Source of the DNA: Octopus vulgaris
Taxonomy: Eukaryota
Direction: 5' to 3'
NCBI GenBank assembly: GCA_951406725.2
Contig: OX597824.1
Span: 44,392,001-44,456,000 of the forward strand
Length of the DNA: 64,000 nt
Both the position numbers and the translations under genes were made by a program. A model generated the notes under the pieces. The model was not told the DNA's origin, did not search any database, and worked only from the letters and a program-made list of their open reading frames with translations. Every line of letters begins with the position of its first letter. Position 1 is the stretch's first letter. Positions 6,515 to 59,069 of this stretch are shown here, piece by piece.

Positions 6515-6602
6515 CCAGGTTACATATGTTTCATAGCTAGAAGAACCTCAGCAGTAAATTATCCAAATGAGGGGTAGACCACATGCAACTCTTTAGGACA
6601 AG
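6515..6602 (-). ncRNA. Degenerate hammerhead-ribozyme-like motif
   Basis: Minus strand: CTAAAGA (CUGAAGA variant)-gttgc...tagc-tat-GAAAC ATAT GTA. The palindromic tetraloop is typical of minimal Penelope hammerheads; stem I is decayed. Confidence 0.45.
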
Positions 6603-7656: not shown

Positions 7657-7844
7657 TATTTCTTTATTGCCCACAAGGGGCTAAACACAGAGGGGACAAA
7701 CAAGGACAGACAAATGGATTAAGTCGATTATATTGACCCCAGTGCGTAACTGGTACTTAATTTATCGACCCTGAAAGGATGAAAGGCAAAGTAGACCTTG
7801 GCAGAATTTGAACTCAGAACGTAACAGAAGATGAAATACCGATA
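7657..7844 (-). mobile_element. 5'-truncated SINE family A with 16-bp TSD
   Basis: Core ttatcgaccctgaaaggatgaaaggcaaagtagacc; exact flanking repeats agctctatgtatttgt at 7641-7656 and 7845-7860. Confidence 0.9.
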
Positions 7845-14185: not shown

Positions 14186-15060
14186 GAAATATTGTATTTC
14201 ATAAATATATTCTATAAATATTTATAATATTTATGTAAATAATAATGGACTAATTTATTTATTTTTGGTTATATGTTTATATATTTATTGATAGAGAAAA
14301 TTTTAGATTGTTAATTACTATATTTATTGATTATAATTTAGATACTTATTTTTATGTATTCATTATTTTATAATTATTAGATGTGAACTTAAATCTAAAA
14401 ATATTAATAGTGATTATTTTGTTAAATAATTTGGTAATTAAATATTGGAGTATAACTGAGTTAAAGATATTCAAGAGTTTATTATGTTTTTTAAAGCCAA
14501 ATTATATCTTCAAAGATAAATACATATTTCTATCTATTTTTTTTACCTTAAAAATTAAATATTTAACATAATAAATGTGTTGTAGGAAATAATCCTAATG
14601 TTTTAAGTTTCTAATTTAGTTAATGGAGTTTTTTCTATAAGAAAAATTATTATTTTATTTATTTCTTAAATAAATATTATTTAACTCTATTTGCTTATTT
14701 ATTTAACTATTATCATTAACCTGAAGATTGACTATAATTTAAAATCAAATTTATTTCAATCGAATTTAAACTTAATTGTAATTCGAATTTAATTGTCACC
14801 ATGAAACGTACGTAGTGTTTTTACTTATTATATTATATATTTATTGTTCATTTTATACTTTTTGAGATCTATTTATAAGTTATATGTTTTATAAAAATAT
14901 ATATTATTTGTTATTTATGTATTGGTTTATGTCTATCACTGTTTGAGTTGCATAATAGTGGTTTTATCTCTAATTTATATTTTATATATTTATACTGTGA
15001 AATTTGATTTAATACTAAATTAAATTTTCCCCCGTAAGTTTGGAGTTATACTCCCCAATA
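14186..15060. mobile_element. Extremely AT-rich dispersed repeat (probable Penelope-type terminal region)
   Basis: 14910-15060 matches the reverse complement of 51490-51640 and also 34430-34505; contains a hammerhead-like motif at 14715-14820. Confidence 0.6.
14715..14820 (+). ncRNA. Hammerhead-ribozyme-like motif with long stem II
   Basis: CTGAAGA (14721-27), stem II tgac/gtca enclosing ~60 nt, ccat, then GAAAC GTAC GTA (14803-14) with a palindromic loop. Stem I is weak. Confidence 0.55.
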
Positions 15061-15061
15061 T

Positions 15062-15093
<32 letters not shown>

Positions 15094-15129
15094 TATATAC
15101 ATACATACATACATACATATATATATATC

Positions 15130-29269: not shown

Positions 29270-30060
29270 AGGTAGGGTTCCAGGTGGGATGAGGTTATAC
29301 CTCTTACATTGGTTCCAAAGGTAACAGTTGAAGTTTCACTTTTGCATATGTGTCCAAATGTTCATTGAGTGGGATTTGTCTAGTCCTGGGATTTTGTATT
29401 TGTTGTCAATGAATCATTAATCTCATTCTTAAGGTGTGTTTGGTTTGTCCAATATAACCTTCACAGCATCCAATGAATTTGATGGCATATATTAACTGTT
29501 TTGAAGAACAAGTAAAGTAAAAGGTTGTCACAAGTTCTGCAATTAGAGCAGCTGCACTTTTTAACTGTTGGAGTTGAGTTTGTAGTTGGCAGTTTTGCAT
29601 CAGTAAGTAGTTTTTTTGGTAGGGTATTTTAGTTGTCTTCTGCATTTAATTATTTTGTGTGATTCAAGTGCTTTTTCTTTTTATACCATGGCTCAATGTT
29701 CTGATGGATAATATTGAATGTTTCTGCATTTCTTTGGTTGTGAGTTATAGTTAAAGTTAGAGTGTATCTGAACTGTTTTTGACTTTTTGTAATTCTTCAA
29801 TGTCTACTGCTTTGGTGCATCCTTTTCCATTCTTTAATAGAGTAGCTTGGTCTATTCTTTCAAGTAGTGTTTGTTTTAATTCCAGGAATTTCCAGAGTGG
29901 AGACAACTGTTCAGGTTTTTTTAGCTAGGTTGAATGGCATATTTGTTTTGGTATGCTTTGGGTGGCATGAAGTAATTACTAGGTACTGTTTAGACTATGC
30001 TGGTTTCTAGTGGATTTCAGTTTTTATGTTTGTGTTATTCTTTATAATCAAAATGTCTGG
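29270..30060 (-). mobile_element. Penelope-like element, GIY-YIG endonuclease region
   Basis: ORF 29406-29645 contains FTCSSKQLIYAIKFIGCCEGYIGQTKHTLRMRLMIH; an upstream RT-thumb remnant reads SCHPKHTKTNMPFNLAKK. Confidence 0.85.
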
Positions 30061-33300: not shown

Positions 33301-33777
33301 TAAAAGGCTGGGCGGAAGTGGCGAATGCATACATCGCGTCTGTCATCTACTACTGCCTAACCAGAAAACTTTAGGACCATCACTCTGTTCAATGCAGATT
33401 TTAAAATTTTGGCCAAGGTGTTAGCCAAAAGGTTGGCGCTTGTCATCAAGAAACTGGTCGACAAGGCGCAAACCAAAAAAATAAAGAAAAAAAGAGTCAC
33501 TTACTGTAATGTGCTTTTTTTGCACGATATTATTGCCCGAGGTTACTGTGGTCTTTTCTATAGGCTTTTCTTTCCATGGATAAACTTAATCCTTTTTCCC
33601 TTTTACATTTATGACATCTCTGTGATACATGATCCCTATTGATCAGCAATTTTTTTCACAATCTCTTTTGATTGAAATTTTGTTTCCCACCACTTTGTTT
33701 CCCACCCAAAAAAAGCTCTACATTGTATTTTGTCCCCTATGTGGCTAATAAAGAAACATATCTATCTATCTATCTAT
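30310..33777 (+). mobile_element. Tx1/L1-clade LINE, multiply deleted: ORF1 with CCHC knuckle, RT remnants and 3' UTR
   Basis: CYLCNSETHLKNDC zinc knuckle; GYWKLNASLL; ITLLNADFK; LDQSKAFDRVDH; AYTDDVT; AATAAA followed by a (CTAT)n tail. Confidence 0.9.
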
Positions 33778-33979: not shown

Positions 33980-34578
33980 CATACATACATACACACATAT
34001 ATGTGTGTGTGTGTATATATATAATTTAAGACAATCAGTAAGTTGTCATTATAGTACTCGGAGTTTCGAATGTTGGAGCAAAGAGCTACAATGCACTCTT
34101 GTTTGCTATTAATGGCAATAGATGCTATGAAAAAAAAATCACTGAATAAAAGGGAAGTTACTTTAATAGGTAGAAAAAAAGAATAAAAAACCATGCAACC
34201 ATAGTCTCACAATACACAGACATAAAAGCTCCTGCGTTCATAATGTCTACATATGTACACACTCACACAAGCATATATATGTGCATGCACATACACACAC
34301 AAACATATATGTGCATGTACATGCTCATACAGTCACACATAATCACACACACACGCACACATGTATATGTATATATATTTATATATAAATATATATACAT
34401 ATACATGTGTGCGTGTGTGTGAGTGATTTATATTTATACTATAAAATTGGATTTAATCCTAAATCTGATTTTTCCCTGTAAGTTTGGATTTATTCCCTAA
34501 TATTTTATTATATATATATATATATATATAAAAATTGAATGGAGACAAGAATGTGTGTACATGTATATATATATATAT

Positions 34579-44865: not shown

Positions 44866-44984
44866 TTATAAATACACACACACACACACAGCTGAATTAG
44901 GTACATAAGTGGAAGCACCAAGTCAGTCCAGTATTATCCGCAGAGGATAATACTGGACTTATTAAGGTTAATAAAATAAAAATA

Positions 44985-45330
44985 ATAATAATAATAATAA
45001 TAATAATGAAATTATTGTATACAGTGCTCAGGTGCACCACAACTTGTCAGAAAGTGCATATAAAGTACATGCAGTAATGTAGAAATGTCTGGAAAGCGAA
45101 CAATGTATGAGTCAGATACATGCTTGATGTGTGTATGGAGGGGAGAAAATCAAGTGTAGTGTTGGCGAATCTCAGGAAACATGGAAGTTTTGAAGGATGC
45201 AGTGCTCCGACAACTAACAACTGATGCCGGCAGTTTGTTCCATGCTTCAGCAACTCTCAGCGTGAAAAAATGTTTCCTGAAGTCATGGGAGCTGTGCTAT
45301 TTTCTTACTTTGTAAATATGTCCACGGGTG
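44985..45330 (-). mobile_element. CR1 LINE 3' end with (TTA)n tail
   Basis: TRGHIYKVRK*HSSHDFRKHFFTLRVAEAWNKLPASVV. The tail gtgcacctgagcactgta is also present alone at 19880-19925. Confidence 0.85.
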
Positions 45331-45357
45331 GATAAGTAACAAGATATCAAGTAATAA

Positions 45358-45444
45358 TGCAGTACAACTGTTTCATGTAGCTCCATTTAATTGAACAATG
45401 CAATCATTACATCAATTTAAATTACAGCACTATCTTCAGCTGCA
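45358..45444 (-). ncRNA. Type I hammerhead motif with intact core and long stem II
   Basis: tgcag-CTGAAGA-tag...cta-cat-GAAAC AGTT GTA-ctgca; the sister copy at 47708-47793 (+) has a mutated core. Confidence 0.65.
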
Positions 45445-45468
45445 CAAATATGGATTTTTAACAGACAC

Positions 45469-46345
45469 CATCATCATCATCATCATCGTTTAGCATCCGC
45501 TTTCCATGCTAGCATGGGTTGGACGGTTCAACTGGGGTCTGTGAAGCCAGAAGGCTTCATCAGGCCTAGTCAGATCTGGCAGTGTTTCTACGGCTGGATG
45601 CCCTTCCTAACGCCAACCACTCCGTGAGTGTAGTGGGTGCTTTTTATGTGCCACCCGCACAGGTGCCAGACAGCTGGCAAACTGCCACGAACGGATGGTG
45701 CTTTTTATGTGCCACCGGCACGGGGGCCAGGTGAGGCTGGCAACGGACACGAACGGATGGTGCTTTTTACGTGCCACCGGCACGAGGCCAGTCAGGGCGG
45801 CGCTGGCAATGGTCACGAACGGATGGTTCTCTTACATGCCACCGGCACTGGTAACACATCTGCAATTTCCATTGATCCTCACTTGCCTCAACAGGTCTTC
45901 ACAAGTAGAGTTTTGTGTCCCAAGAAGGGAAGGTATGCATACGTAGGCTGGCTCCATCCCAAGTAGAAGGCCATGGGTTATGGACTCACTTGTCCTGCCG
46001 GGTCTTCTCGCGCACAGCACACTTCCAGAGGTCTCAGTCTCTAGTCATTTCCTCAGTGAGACCTAAAGTTCGAAGGTTGTGCTTCACCACCTCATCCCAG
46101 GTTTTCCTGGGTCTGCCTCTTCCGCAGGTTCCCTCAACCGCTAGTGTGTGGCACTTTTTCACACAACTATCTTCATCCATTCTCGCCACATGCCCATACC
46201 AGCGCAAACATCTCTCTTGCACACCACAACTGATGCTTCTTAGGTCCAGCTTTTCTCTCAAGGTACTTACACTCTGCCGAGTATGAGTACTGACATTACA
46301 CATCCATCGGAGCATACTGGCTTCATTTCTTGCGAGCTTACGCAT
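45469..46345 (-). mobile_element. RTE LINE, 5'-truncated
   Basis: ORF 46034-46345 (RNEASMLRWMC, LRWYGHVARM, GRGRPRKTW); 3' UTR with ~60-bp tandem units; (GAT)n tail. Confidence 0.93.
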
Positions 46346-47931
46346 TAATATAATTTTTCTTAATTTAGCAAAGCAAGAGGAAGGAAGTATTTCATGTTGT
46401 TACTATTGTAGCAAGAATAGCTGAGAGAACAAAACTACAATTGTTTTTTTTTTATTTTCCTTCTCTGAATTTCTACCCTATCAGTCATATTAAATATATT
46501 TGTAATGATATTGAGATAGTAAGTCTCCCTTGACTAACCCTTATACCCACTAAGAACTATACAATCATACATACAATAGCACTGTAATATTATAACTTAC
46601 AAAACCACTTTGGTATGAATACCTTAAACTGTCCTCATTATTTCCATACCTATTATCCCTTTTTAAGTTACCTTTATATTTTCTTGCTTTTAATTTTAAT
46701 CCCCGGTCTGTTGCATCTTCTCTTCACATATATGTAGGTTAAGATGTGGCTGAAAATGGTTCCTAAATTGATATTTTCCAGTTACTTATATTTACACCAA
46801 ATAATTACACTATACTTTTTATGTAAGTGTATGTATATATACATACACACACATATATATATTTTTTCTCTAGTTTCAGCTCAGAGCTGCGGCCATGCTG
46901 ATGCACATATATATAAATCCCTTTTTGTATATGTATCTGTATGCCTTATTTTTATACTATTACACCTACTTATATCAGTACACATTTTTTCTTGTATACT
47001 TTTTCCAGATAAATTCCATATGTAAGTGGTTTGAGTGGTCTTTATAGTGACCACCTTATAATTTATTAAATAAACATGAATTATTAAGTTGATTCTACAT
47101 AATAGTAATCTTTTTAATGTTTAAATTGATCTATAAACCCCTTTTAGCTAACTTGGTTATGATATCTCTTTCTAAAATTTCTTTTTTAAATTTTATTTTT
47201 ATACAACATAATAATATTGTTTATAAACAGTCTCCCACTGAACCCCTAATATTTTCCTGGACTCATTGTAGCATCCTAAGTTTTCAGTGTTTGAACCTTT
47301 AACAGGTAACAACATCATGAATTAATGTCAAACTTACCCTACCTCTTTTATAGACATTTACTAATTGACTCTTTCTAAAGTTTGTTTTTTCTTGTGGGCT
47401 GCTGGGGGGGGGGGTCTGTGATAGTATGAAATTTATAACCAACAGCCAGTGATGAGCTGTCAACTCGCTTTGCTCTTTATTCTAAATAAGTCTTCTAGTC
47501 TTAGATTTTTGTTGATGATAAGGAGATAGATAAATTGGAAATGAATTACAACCATGTGTCCCATGTCACTCTAAAAATTGTAGTTTTGTTCTTCTCTTAG
47601 CTATTCTTGCTACAATAATGACATGAAATTCTTCTATCTTCTTGCTCTGATAAAATATTTAAGAAAAATCATATCAATATATCTTGTCTGTTGAAGATCC
47701 ATATTTGTTCAGTTGAAAATAGCACTGTATTTAAATTGATATAATGATTCCATTGTTCAATTAAATGGAGTTGCTTGAAACAGTCGTACTGCATTACTAC
47801 TTGACATCCTGTTATTTTGATTATATATATATATATAGACAGATAGATAGATAGATACACACACACGCACACACACACACATATATATATATAGAGAGAG
47901 AAAGATAGATAGATAGAGATATATACATATG

Positions 47932-48288: not shown

Positions 48289-48734
48289 GTATGTATGTGT
48301 TTGTGTGTACTGGCATTCTTTTAAAGTCCACTTTTCATGCTTGCATGAGTCAGACAGAATTCCTCGAGGTAGATTATTTATAGGTGGATGACATTCTTAC
48401 CACCAACCCTCACTTGTTTCCTAGCATGGTGATATTTCCCCATTTCATGGAATATTAAAAATGAATGACATTGTTTGCATGACAATGACACTCCTTTATG
48501 ACTATCATGTGATGTTAAGAGAAGACAAAAACACATATAGATATACACAGACACACACATACACACACATACATTGGGCTTCTTCCAGTTTGTGTTTACT
48601 TAAATCCACTGATAGGGGCTTGGGCAACTTGGACTTATTGTCTGAGGTGCCATTCAGTTGAGCTCAACCTGAAATCATGTGATAAATAAGTGAACTTCTT
48701 AACCACAGAGATATGCCTCTATCATATACATCTA

Positions 48735-51470
<2,736 letters not shown>

Positions 51471-51558
51471 ATATATATAATAATAATAATATTAGAGAGT
51501 AAATCCAAACTTACAGGGAAAAATTAGATTTAGGATTAAATCCAATTTTACAGTATAA

Positions 51559-52080
51559 ATATATATATTAAATTAGAGAGATAAAACCACTATTAGGCAA
51601 ATCAAACAGTGAAAAACATAAACCAAAACATAGAAATAAAATTAATTAATATAACATACAAAATATATAAAATATAAAATTCAAAATTTAAATTATTTAA
51701 ATTTAAAGTTAGAATTTAAAAATGTTTTTTAAATTATTAATTTATACTTATAAATTTATATATATATATATATATATATATAGGTAAACAGTAAAAATAA
51801 TTACAGACATGGACAAGAACATGAAACGCCACAGAGACGACACAAGAACCACAGGACGGGACATTCGAAGCCCTCAGTCATCAGTCAAGAACCAGATCAT
51901 CTTAGCAATTTCGGCTGATTATATATATATATATATATTTTATTATTTTTATTTTTATTATTATTATTATTTTTTTTTTTTAAATATTATATTAATTAAT
52001 TTTATTTCTATGTTTTGGTTTATGTTTTTCACTGTTTGATTTGCCTAATAGTGGTTTTATCTCTAATTTAATATATATAT
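51559..52080. repeat. Near-perfect ~95-bp inverted repeat enclosing a permuted hammerhead-like motif
   Basis: 51559-51654 versus 51987-52080; same AT-rich family as 14910-15060. Confidence 0.9.
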
Positions 52081-52445
52081 ATATGTCTTTATAGAAAGAA
52101 GTTGTTCTTTTTTAGGGATATATTATTTGAGCATATGATAGTTTTGCACAAATATCAATTAATGATACTGGAAATTTTTCATGTGTATATGTACTAGTGT
52201 TTATCATTGGTTTTTCTTCAATATTAGTACTTTACACATCTGAAATTCCAGTTGTTGCTACGGAGATTTCCATGATTTTCGATATAGGAGAAAAGTTTAA
52301 AAATGCAAAGAAATCAGAGAATACATACATAGAGTAATCAATTTATTACCATAGTCCAGTCAAGTTAACAAGTCCATTATTATTGCCTATGGTGCATTTT
52401 GGCTGATTGCTATTATTCAATATTTGCACTTTTAATATGCATTAT

Positions 52446-52987: not shown

Positions 52988-55146
52988 AGGGCATAACTGA
53001 CTGATATTTTTCACATCCTAATGGATGGAGCGTTTATTCCAATTGAATTGCAGCATGTGCATCTGGGATTCTGTTCTAAAAATAGCTAAAAGTTGATTTT
53101 TTGACCTTACTGGACAAGGGATAGGCATAGTTCAGAAGAACTAGGTCATGTTACAATTCCACTCTTTTGGTAGTGCTGATTAACTTTTTACAAGTTTGCC
53201 ACTACTTTTCATCCTACTCAGTATGTCCATAACATATTCTTCTATGTCCTTATTCCACCCATTTGGCCAAATTGATCAACTATTTATGCTTACAAGCCTG
53301 CTCCTACTTTTCATACTATTCAAATTTTGTTTTGTATATGGTTTTAATTTTAATTTTTGTTTACAGCAAGCTTTACTTAGATGAGTCAGTAGCTCCCATT
53401 GTTATGTCGAAGCTATCATTAGTGTCTTTCTTTACTCAGTATTTATTATCAAATTGTATAATAAATTTCCTAGCTGCTAATATTACATTGATTTCATTCA
53501 TATTAAGATCTGTATTCTGTTTAGCAAACAAGAGGGCCTTATTTAGTAGTATAGGGTTAATAGATGAATGCAGCTATCAATATCTATGATGAGGAAATTT
53601 TTAAACAGAAATTGATTATTACAACACCACACTAAGTAAAGCTGGATTTAAACAAAAATAAAAATTCTACATACCAAGCATAAAATCTGAGAATAGGAAC
53701 AAAGCACAAAACAAGATTCGCAATAAAGCTATTGATACAGAAATTATTAAATATAAGGATAAAAAGAATATGGATAGGATAGAATATAAATCCGATAAGA
53801 AAAATGTAAGTAAACACATCAAGAAAAAGATAGAAAACAAAAAGAAATCAAGCATGTATAAAAAAGATACAAACATTAAGGAATGGGTAAAAATAAAAGA
53901 TAAGATGAAAATAGAGTCAAAAATAAAACACTATAATAATTATGACTATATGAATATAAACCAAAATAGAACAATTAACAATAAAAGAGAAATATATGAA
54001 AAGCTAAATGATAATATTTCTAACAATCCTGTAAAAAGTTACACCCTATGCATAAATGACATCAACCCCCATAACATAAAAATAGTTCTAAAGATGATAT
54101 AATATGGTTCATAATATCTTTTGCAAAGCAAATTAGAATTAATATAGTGAAATTATTCTACAAAATACCATAAAATAATAAACTCACACAAACTAAGGGC
54201 CAGATTTTGCATATCAAAAAACATAGCACAAATTATTGTTGCTCAAAATGTTAAAAGAGTAAATGATTTCTACAACAAAAGGAATAAAGAAAATAAAAAT
54301 GAATTATGAAATGATCAAAATGGCGAGAAAATTAAAGGCAATATGAGTTACACAATAAAAGGAAATAACTCTAAGGGACACTCCACTAGGATCTAAACAT
54401 ATAAACATACAATCTATATAAAAAAGAAGCAATAATCATTGATAAAATTGATAATATAAATATAAATATTGATAATATAAATATAAATACTAATACTGAT
54501 GATATAAATATAAATACTGATAATATAAATATTGATAATATAAATATAAATACTAATACTAACAATAGCAGCAATAAACACAAAAAAGAAAACAATAAAA
54601 GTACTAGGATAGGAAAAGAAAACAAAGACAAAGTAGATAATAATGCAGGCAGTAAACAAACTAACGTGAATAATCATAGAAAATAAATATAATGAGGATA
54701 ACTCTGAAAGCATAGAATACAAGCACAACATTATTAGAAAACAGAGAGCACTACTAAAAAAAATTGTGATTGCGCTAAAGAAAAATGATGTCCATTAAAT
54801 TCTCTTTGTAGGGAAAAAGGAGTTATATATGGACGTAAGGTTGTATGTGAGGGACAGGATTACTACTATATAGGTTCTATGGAAAATTATATAAAAAGGA
54901 TAGCTAATCATGAAAACACCTTCAGGGATAGAAAAAAAGAGGCTAGCACAAATCTAAGTAATTTAATTTGATCAATTAAGGATAAAAATAAGAACTATGC
55001 ACTTACATGGGAAATAATTAGCCAAGCAAAATCTTATAGCATTGGGAACAAAAGATGTGAACTATGTATTGAAGAAATTTACCAGATTCTTTCATCAAAA
55101 CACAAATTAATCAGCAAGAGGGAAAGAGGACTATGTTGTGTTCATA

Positions 55147-57524: not shown

Positions 57525-59069
57525 ATCAGTTGAATAAAGTTAAAACATGGTCTGATTTTCATGTTTCTTATTATGGTATTTTAACATTAAAAGATATTTT
57601 GTAATGTTCGTAAAGTTCAATTAGTGCTTTCATATGTTTGGTAGTGAATGTATTTAACCGATAGTTGAGTTCTTGACAACTGTAGTACCTCTTAGAATGC
57701 TCCAACAAGCTGAATTTATGATCAATCTGCATGCAGGTTAAACATCACTGTTTGCAAGGCATACCAATATTCTGTAATTTGCTTATATTCATATGTTAAA
57801 GATATTTTATAATCCACACTGGTTGTTATATTATTGTTGTTATTTTCCTTCAGAACAGGTTTGAATATTTTGAAAAACCGTTTTTCAGTTGTCTTTCTTC
57901 CAACCTCACTTGTGTCATTTAGTTTGTGGAAAGGTAAAATTAGAAACATTTTCTGACCACATGTTTCTATATGTTTGCTCAATGGAATTTGGCACACATT
58001 GGCATGCCAGATTTGTTATCTGTGGACTCGTGAATGTTCCAATAATGCATTCTTAATCTTGCCTATATATATTTCCTTGAAATTCGAGCATTTAATGCAG
58101 TAGACCAAATTTCTGCTTTTGCTGTTCATATCTGCATGTGTGAAAATCTGTCCATATTTTGTTCTAATGGATCTATCCGTATGTATATATTAACATGTTC
58201 CACATCTATTATCATTATACTTGGATACTGTGAATGTCTTATCCTGTTTGTTCATGTTGAATTTTACCTTTGTTAATAGATTATTTAGGTTATATGGTTG
58301 CCTTTTGCTTAAGATAAGTGTTTGATTAGTTATCTTCTTTAATTTTTCACTTTGTTTTATGATTGGCAAATTTGTTTTGATGATGTTAAAAATGTTTTGG
58401 TGATGCGGATTGTGTGTTGCTATTGCATTCTGCTGATGGGTTCATCTTTTTTGTGTTGCCCTAAGTTGTTCTATAGGTATCTCTTTTGCTCATTGTTTGT
58501 TATTTTCTATAAGTAGGAGAGGGTAATTTTGCTTGAGCAGAAATCCTTTGAGTTCTATAAGTTGTGTGTTTCTGGTATTTGGATCATCTACTATAGTACA
58601 CATTTTCCTGGCTAGACAGTACAGGATATTACGATTTGTGTGTATTGGATAGCATGATTTGAAATTTAGGTACTGGTGTGTATCTGTGCTTTTGTGATAA
58701 ATATCAATTGTGATTATGGTGTTGTTTTTAATTACCAAGAAATGGTAATTGTGTGTTGCTCATTTCTCTTGTGAATTTGAGACTAGAGTATTCTTGTGAA
58801 TTTGAGACTAGGGTACTGATTGTTGAGGAGGGTAATGAATTCTTCCAGATTTTCTAGGGATTTGGTCCAAATTAGGAAACAATCATTGAGGTATCTTTTC
58901 CATGTGTCCTCTATATGTCTTTTAAAGGTCATGCCATAGTTCTGATGATTATTACCAAACACAAGAAAGCAGTAATTGAACTTTATGAACATTACAAAAT
59001 ATTTTTTAATGTTAAAATACCATAATAAAAAACATGAAACCCAGACCATGTTTTAACTTTATTCAACTG

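Follow-up and report, generated by a model that had tools for sequence, protein, structure and literature searches.

Hammerhead ribozymes near the 3′ end of Penelope-like elements (PLEs) are the closest described systems to the motif treated here, which lies on the minus strand of the window (the whole 64-kb stretch of Octopus vulgaris DNA that was analysed). In the Hydra-clade entries of Craig 2021 (PMC8557442), such as Hydra-1_cRog, Hydra-1_aJap and Penelope-1_HM, the hammerheads are type I, located on the sense strand near the 3′ end, and the elements have a short self-complementary stem III, insertion at (TA)n and a CxC-x5-C linker, all of which are also found here. However, loop 2 is 3-10 nt in these entries and the spacer between A9 and G12 at most about 26 nt, whereas the spacers here are 57-75 nt, and the hammerhead of the octopus family Hydra-1_oBim, as given in the same source, is unlike those described below. 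The minimal PLE hammerheads in the parts consulted of Cervera and de la Pena 2014 (PMC4209133) likewise lie in terminal repeats, with a palindromic stem III, a dimer model, opposite-strand pairs 100-700 bp apart and many families per genome, but unlike those here they have a short-looped helix II of 7-8 bp, an additional base after A9 and a conserved G10.1-C11.1 pair; no long arm is seen in the rows of their Fig. S3.

Helix II begins with a U-U mismatch here, for which there are two precedents. The axolotl HHR_Amex2 carries this mismatch and cleaves to 22% as a monomer and more as a dimer (Cervera and de la Pena 2020, PMC7229834), and Perreault et al. 2011 (PMC3088659) report U10.1-U11.1 as the first pair of stem II in natural hammerheads. 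The passages on these two describe no long arm, and HHR_Amex2 belongs to tandem retrozymes, unlike the motifs behind an ORF here. A likewise long distance from A9 to G12 (~50 nt) is listed in File S2 of Craig 2021, marked as deviating, for PLE-X1_sMoe and PLE-X1_sTam of spike mosses; these are single plant families, endonuclease-less and rDNA-targeting, and not a genome-wide majority as in the octopus. The window motif is very probably a decayed type I hammerhead at the 3′ end of a two-armed PLE insertion, likely of the Hydra clade, in which the RNA of the source element is predicted to be cut after GUA, probably as a dimer, and in which a long unbranched stem II is closed by a U-U mismatch with no bulge.

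The window hammerhead and its element

A strict type I descriptor gives a single match in the whole window, at 45358-45444, and the genome search with this family (family A) gives 1585 first-look candidates, so that the motif is not a product of chance. The perfect stem I, CUGAAGA and GAAAC..GUA that a preliminary description had reported on the minus strand are all present (Table 1), and the unusually long AT-rich stem II noticed there is real and recurs across the genome. For the copy alignments, 40 of the first-look candidates of each family (A 1585, B 1431, C 1090, D 864) were scored, matches covering less than 75% of the query were left out, as was locus L008 of family A (a duplicate of L002), and the best-scoring copies (A 35, B 31, C 30, D 26), biased toward the subfamily of the window, were aligned. 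CUGANGA, GAAA and NUH stand in type I order, and the strict core is kept in 19 of the 35 family A copies. The Watson-Crick pair expected at 10.1-11.1 is replaced by U-U in 32/35; this is a published, active exception and does not exclude the motif from the type I hammerheads. At E≤5 the window gave 148 Rfam matches, none of them to a hammerhead model, and at the gathering score no such match was obtained in six loci, a short-stem copy included, so that this test is insensitive here.

Table 1. Coordinates of the hammerheads and their elements in the window
Feature	Position	Strand	Basis or remark
Type I hammerhead motif, family A, decayed	45358..45444	minus	strict descriptor and family alignment
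Predicted cut of this hammerhead	between 45363 and 45362	minus	after GTA
Stem I, tgcag / ctgca	45444-45440 / 45362-45358	minus	read from sequence
Core CTGAAGA	45439-45433	minus	read from sequence
A9-G12 spacer, 58 nt, ending in cat	45432-45375	minus	read from sequence
Stem II domain, 58 nt	45375..45432	minus	U-U closing mismatch, base helix, AU-rich middle helix, apical 5-bp hairpin
cat, positions 11.3, 11.2, 11.1	45375..45377	minus	A private to window copy; family has CTT
GAAAC	45374-45370	minus	then loop AGTT, then GTA 45365-45363
Self-complementary stem III/loop 3, 8 nt	45364..45371	minus	cofold
Minus arm of family A insertion, three pieces split by other repeats	44893..46445	minus	similarity
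Pieces of minus arm	46445-46347, 45467-45332, 3′ tail 44985-44893	minus	similarity
Plus arm, head to head with minus arm	46450..47826	plus	AT-rich 3′ region, ends in (TA)n
Second family A hammerhead, on plus arm	47708..47793	plus	core mutated to TTGAAAA; CTT before GAAAC
Family B hammerhead	14718..14817	plus	element 14191-15103; 75-nt stem II domain, U-U closing, weak stem I
Family D hammerhead	6520..6599	minus	element 6626-6290; ~60-nt stem II domain, G-U closing, core mutated
Family C short hammerhead	58939..58977	plus	alignment; 15-nt spacer, U-U closing, decayed
Family C inverted arm	58943-57453		carries RT and GIY-YIG remnants
Likeness of family B and young Hydra family tails	14872-15103, 34429-34531, 51470-52093		similarity

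Covariation was read from 19 hand-picked sequences (6 of family A and 13 relatives), which are related to one another, the figures not being probabilities. In the full structure 83.6% of the cells are paired with 42 double changes, far above every slid control; four of the five pairs of stem I and four of the five at the base of stem II have changed on both sides, and the apical hairpin of stem II is 96.8% paired, again with changes on both sides, while stem III is invariant. The spacers of families A and B fold as one long interrupted hairpin (z of -3.4 and -3.9), and that of family D (z -1.2) is no better than its shuffles. Stem III is self-complementary in all four families, with no fold as a monomer and a 6-8 bp duplex as a dimer; for family A the 8-bp duplex amounts to -3.4 kcal/mol in the window copy and -5.8 in the majority sequence, against 0 for the monomer. 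With pair 10.2-11.2 lost and its neighbours split off by later insertions, the window copy (fold z -1.85) may be inactive. No RNA contig that was compared covers this copy, a result that speaks neither for nor against its expression.

The copies share 3′ ends ~40 and ~135 nt behind the cut, their 5′ extent varies and inverted arms are common, that is, the combination of common 3′ ends, variable 5′ truncation and inverted 5′ arm that marks PLEs. Long copies contain ~1.6 kb of AT-rich sequence between the hammerhead and a broken GIY-YIG remnant upstream, which in L154 shows the CxC-x5-C linker (split by a frameshift and read by eye) and CxxC/CxH ends. An endonuclease was found by HMM in one of six extended loci (L154, iE 4e-6) and by eye in two further ones. 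Copy L153 has an inverted RT piece with the DKT motif; the identity of this piece to a Hydra-type frame of the same genome (intact, 841 aa) is 39-41%, and adjacency in this one copy ties it to family A. The RT and GIY-YIG of family A are thus seen in different copies, and no full-length family A copy was found. As for the clade, the linker and the CxxC/CxH ends around conserved E and N are those of Hydra (in family B they are intact, in L115), and many copies end in TA runs, in agreement with the (TA)n insertion of this clade. Judged from these sequence traits, family A is likely a two-armed PLE of the Hydra clade. One close relative of its hammerhead (L294) sits behind Neptune-like RT and EN remnants, and given this copy the lineage of the hammerhead and the clade of the PLE may be mismatched.

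Other identities were considered for family A. A non-LTR retrozyme, made of short non-coding tandem monomers, does not fit copies that are mostly dispersed and extend over more than 2 kb to an endonuclease remnant; one short tandem was seen, in L029. A Naiad origin, suggested by the label 'HHR half core' that an octopus Naiad bears in Craig 2021 (PMC8557442), was rejected, the endonuclease being C-terminal and Hydra-type; four core-side motifs are absent from the supplement text of that paper that was searched. Nematis, initially considered for the endonuclease, was replaced by Hydra according to the published Hydra definition.

By analogy with published PLE and axolotl hammerheads, the RNA of the source element would most likely be cleaved behind GUA by a hammerhead dimer that forms through stem III pairing. 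This cutting would trim the element RNA out of read-through or tandem transcripts and may define one of its ends, and reverse transcription from the 3′ end at TA repeats would then give 5′-truncated, two-armed copies like that of the window. Among loci picked by similarity, with arm starts counted within 60 nt of the cut, starts at -1 to +1 of the cut occur in 3/12 (family A), 1/10 (C), 1/8 (E), 0/2 (D), 0/4 (B) and 0/15 (the young family described below). An independent genome-wide end pattern gave 17 matches, namely 11 indel copies, one chance match and five true ends at about -3, -9, -10, -17 and -23. Neither the similarity-picked loci nor the genome-wide pattern shows a clear enrichment of copy ends at the cut.

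Some further features in and around the insertion were seen. The plus-arm core TTGAAAA (47713-47719) combines U3 and A8, a covarying core pair known from Schistosoma PLEs; in this single copy the two letters may be two chance mutations. The repeat by which the family A arm is interrupted contains a 62-nt tandem unit at 45636-45848, and a 1.7-kb (AT)n tract occupies 48724-50437.

Long stem II across the genome

The genome (2.8 Gb, 227 contigs) was searched with a core pattern having a 4-nt loop 3, by which hammerheads with a shorter loop 3, such as family C, are missed, and the shares hold for this class only. Spacers of 8-24 nt gave 9,261 matches (control 463), those of 25-44 nt 7,821 (control 674) and those of 45-75 nt 33,681 (control 690), with U...U closing in 6,317 of the last group (control 38). 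The 11 lengths from 52 to 62 nt hold 22,422 matches (control 273), which is two thirds of the 45-75 nt set; over all spacer lengths from 8 to 75 nt the pattern has 50,763 matches. When 96 of the first 100 long matches listed on contig 1 were inspected, a stem I of at least 3 bp was present in 70, a self-complementary loop in 85 and both in 64; about two thirds of the long matches, or some 20,000, therefore have the appearance of real hammerheads. Clustering at 75% identity divides the 64 motifs with both traits into 22 clusters, 33 of the motifs falling in two of these. Their closing pairs are G-C in 25, G-U in 13, U-U in 9, A-A in 8 and others in 9; 62 fold as a single hairpin and 37 have a z of -2 or lower.

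In the literature searched, no genome-wide class of long-armed hammerheads was found. As far as this literature shows, the genome-wide long arm is new as a variant; the hammerhead, the element class and the closing mismatch are already known. Single copies carry long-armed motifs behind Neptune-like coding remnants (L294:3999-4096, L262) and behind Hydra-like ones (L242, L293), which may be due to adjacency or to 3′ ends having passed from one PLE clade to another.

The long arm is most likely an AU-rich, tolerated extension that is kept paired so that the base helix forms. The peak at 52-62 nt hints at more, yet it is not independent of shared ancestry. One possible, though rather doubtful, explanation is that selection maintains the long stem II as a functional module, for example an RT-EN binding site or an arm docking with the flanks of stem I, and that it marks a distinct subclass of hammerheads. 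The concentration of 22,422 of 50,763 matches within 11 lengths, the single hairpin in 62/64 motifs across 22 clusters and the paired, doubly changing apical hairpin all speak for it. Against it, the counts are counts of copies and the clusters, two of which hold 33/64, may share an ancestor; the relatives of family B range from ~39 to 75 nt, no arm sequence common to the clusters was seen, and File S2 of Craig 2021 already contains, among its deviating entries, two spike-moss PLE families whose hammerheads have a long stem II. Moreover, in intact young Hydra-type elements (820-860 aa frames) the hammerheads of the terminal repeats have a spacer of 16 nt, which means that the arm is unnecessary for spreading in general. 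In its widest form, which is equally speculative, the dominant hammerhead class here would have an unbranched stem II of 52-62 nt as a selected module, which Penelope elements of the Hydra and Neptune types would have in common or would have exchanged, and which would serve as a handle for a protein or docking contact that controls cutting; standard descriptors and Rfam would miss this class, leaving tens of thousands of motifs per genome uncounted.

It is improbable that the long-armed motifs are catalytically (nearly) dead relics within a 3′ repeat, whose pairing is kept for another purpose such as template recognition. This would agree with the low in vitro activity given for PLE hammerheads in the consulted parts of PMC4209133, with the spreading of Naiads without a canonical hammerhead and with the lack of an intact long-armed element among 20 loci picked by endonuclease similarity. 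However, the core does not vary, and the differences between subfamilies in stems I and II are compensatory, a pattern that requires selection on the ribozyme fold in the source elements.

The long arm is of moderate importance. How many hammerheads are counted in such genomes varies with the longest loop that a descriptor allows, and a single ribozyme is available here in dozens of natural variants, with closing G-C, G-U, U-U or A-A and with short or long arms, on which the function of PLE hammerheads could be tested.

Pairing of the letters before G12

The preliminary description had taken the (c/t)at before GAAAC, at four sites in dissimilar repeats, for an unpaired insertion and thus for a recurrent bulged variant. 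The letters are present at all four sites and the repeats are indeed four families (A-D), but the letters are not extra: the consensus stem II register pairs them, an outcome that the same description had set beforehand as a refutation. In the alignment of genomic copies that it had proposed as a check, the consensus of family A has no bulge; the triplet before G12 is CTT in 32/35 copies and CAT in one, the window copy. After the U-U at 10.1/11.1, the next four positions are paired in 31, 34, 26 and 23 of the 35 copies, the base helix being AGCG/CGCU in the majority, and the losses of pairing fall at CpG sites. Since the second arm of the same insertion also has CTT before GAAAC, as do 32/35 copies, the window copy most likely acquired the A of cat by mutation once it had been inserted.

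At the other three flagged sites, two families pair normally and one site is outside any core. In family B (14799), CAT occurs in 30/31 copies, and its C and A, following a U-U mismatch, pair with the G and T after A9 (30/31 and 31/31). In family D (6533), TAT pairs with the GTA after a core located further upstream (25, 24 and 24 of 26 copies paired), the closing pair is G-U in 25/26, and the core of the window copy is mutated (6596-6590). Family C has its own GAAA 15 nt after CTGATGA (58942), with U-U closing in 24/30; the flagged site 59033 is outside and downstream of this ribozyme, and the majority sequence there is not CAT. The recurrence of CAT is therefore explained by a U10.1-U11.1 mismatch that closes stem II and by the UG/CA helix start next to it; these letters are what the 3′ strand of stem II normally reads in Hydra-type hammerheads, given that by our own count 14 of the 26 Hydra-clade rows in File S2 of Craig 2021 (PMC8557442) have U-U at 10.1/11.1 and 12 of the 26 have CAT directly before GAAA.

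In the 19-sequence alignment, RNAalifold picked the register without a bulge unprompted. The base helix of this register has 20 cells changed on both sides, reached in 0/500 shuffles, and a covariation score of 0.53; the bulge register has six such cells, reached in 163/500 shuffles, and a score of 0.31. Over the first five positions of the 64 sampled motifs, pairing reaches 83% in the symmetric register and 50% with a 3-nt 3′ bulge. It is hardly credible that three unpaired bases between stem II and G12 form a recurrent new core architecture: for it are the letters at four sites, the tag/cta that can pair in the window copy and a register pairing 69.5% of cells (alignment A1) with a covariation score above 493/500 shuffles, and against it are the single CAT among 35 family A copies with CTT in the sister arm, the minimum-energy fold of the window copy, which still pairs the C of cat, the pairing of these bases in families B and D, the family C site outside the core, and, among the 64 motifs, one with 0/3 unpaired ends and one with 1/4. 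As 69.5% of cells pair in it, a slipped fold may exist as a minor state. The flagged bulge is a single-copy mutation plus the known U-U closing pair and is without importance.

Other Penelope-like elements in the window and genome

Family B has a readable Hydra-type endonuclease frame, to which Pfam gave no domain name, and in families A and B ~1.6-2.3 kb separate the endonuclease from the hammerhead. Family C carries RT and GIY-YIG with a differing zinc-finger linker, which we take to be Neptune-like, and the search of family D yielded no ORF. Family B and a young Hydra family have differing hammerheads although their 3′ tails are 76-90% alike, and a signal common to the two tails is possible on this likeness. 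Further PLE coding remnants are present at 53376-53570 (-), 54867-55145 (+) and 29340-29504 (-), comprising Hydra-type RT and endonuclease and a Neptune-like endonuclease piece.

The young, apparently intact Hydra-type PLE family (L186-L195, e.g. L187:907-3429 +) has frames of 820-860 aa, short hammerheads ~270 nt before and ~3.5 kb behind the ORF and an unusually long 3′ region; its endonuclease query gave 15,916 first-look candidates. In the octopus Naiad (Naiad_Ovul), the 3′ end given as 'HHR half core' in File S5 of Craig 2021 has the block order site, GAAA, CUGAUGA, which in the part consulted of Eckert 2023 is that of the non-circularly permuted type SGC; by eye, in two near-identical consensi of that file, a 5-bp stem III and a 6-bp stem I are possible, with only ~2 bp of stem II. 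If this half-core hammerhead is real, Naiads are not ribozyme-free. A mutated, truncated Naiad piece abuts a family A tail in L019:1310-1400 (minus). Finally, retrozyme-like tandem arrays with units of ~550 nt, each containing a hammerhead with a 25-nt spacer, and with inverted arms, were seen at C1:25050050-25052891 and C1:30576368-30577758.
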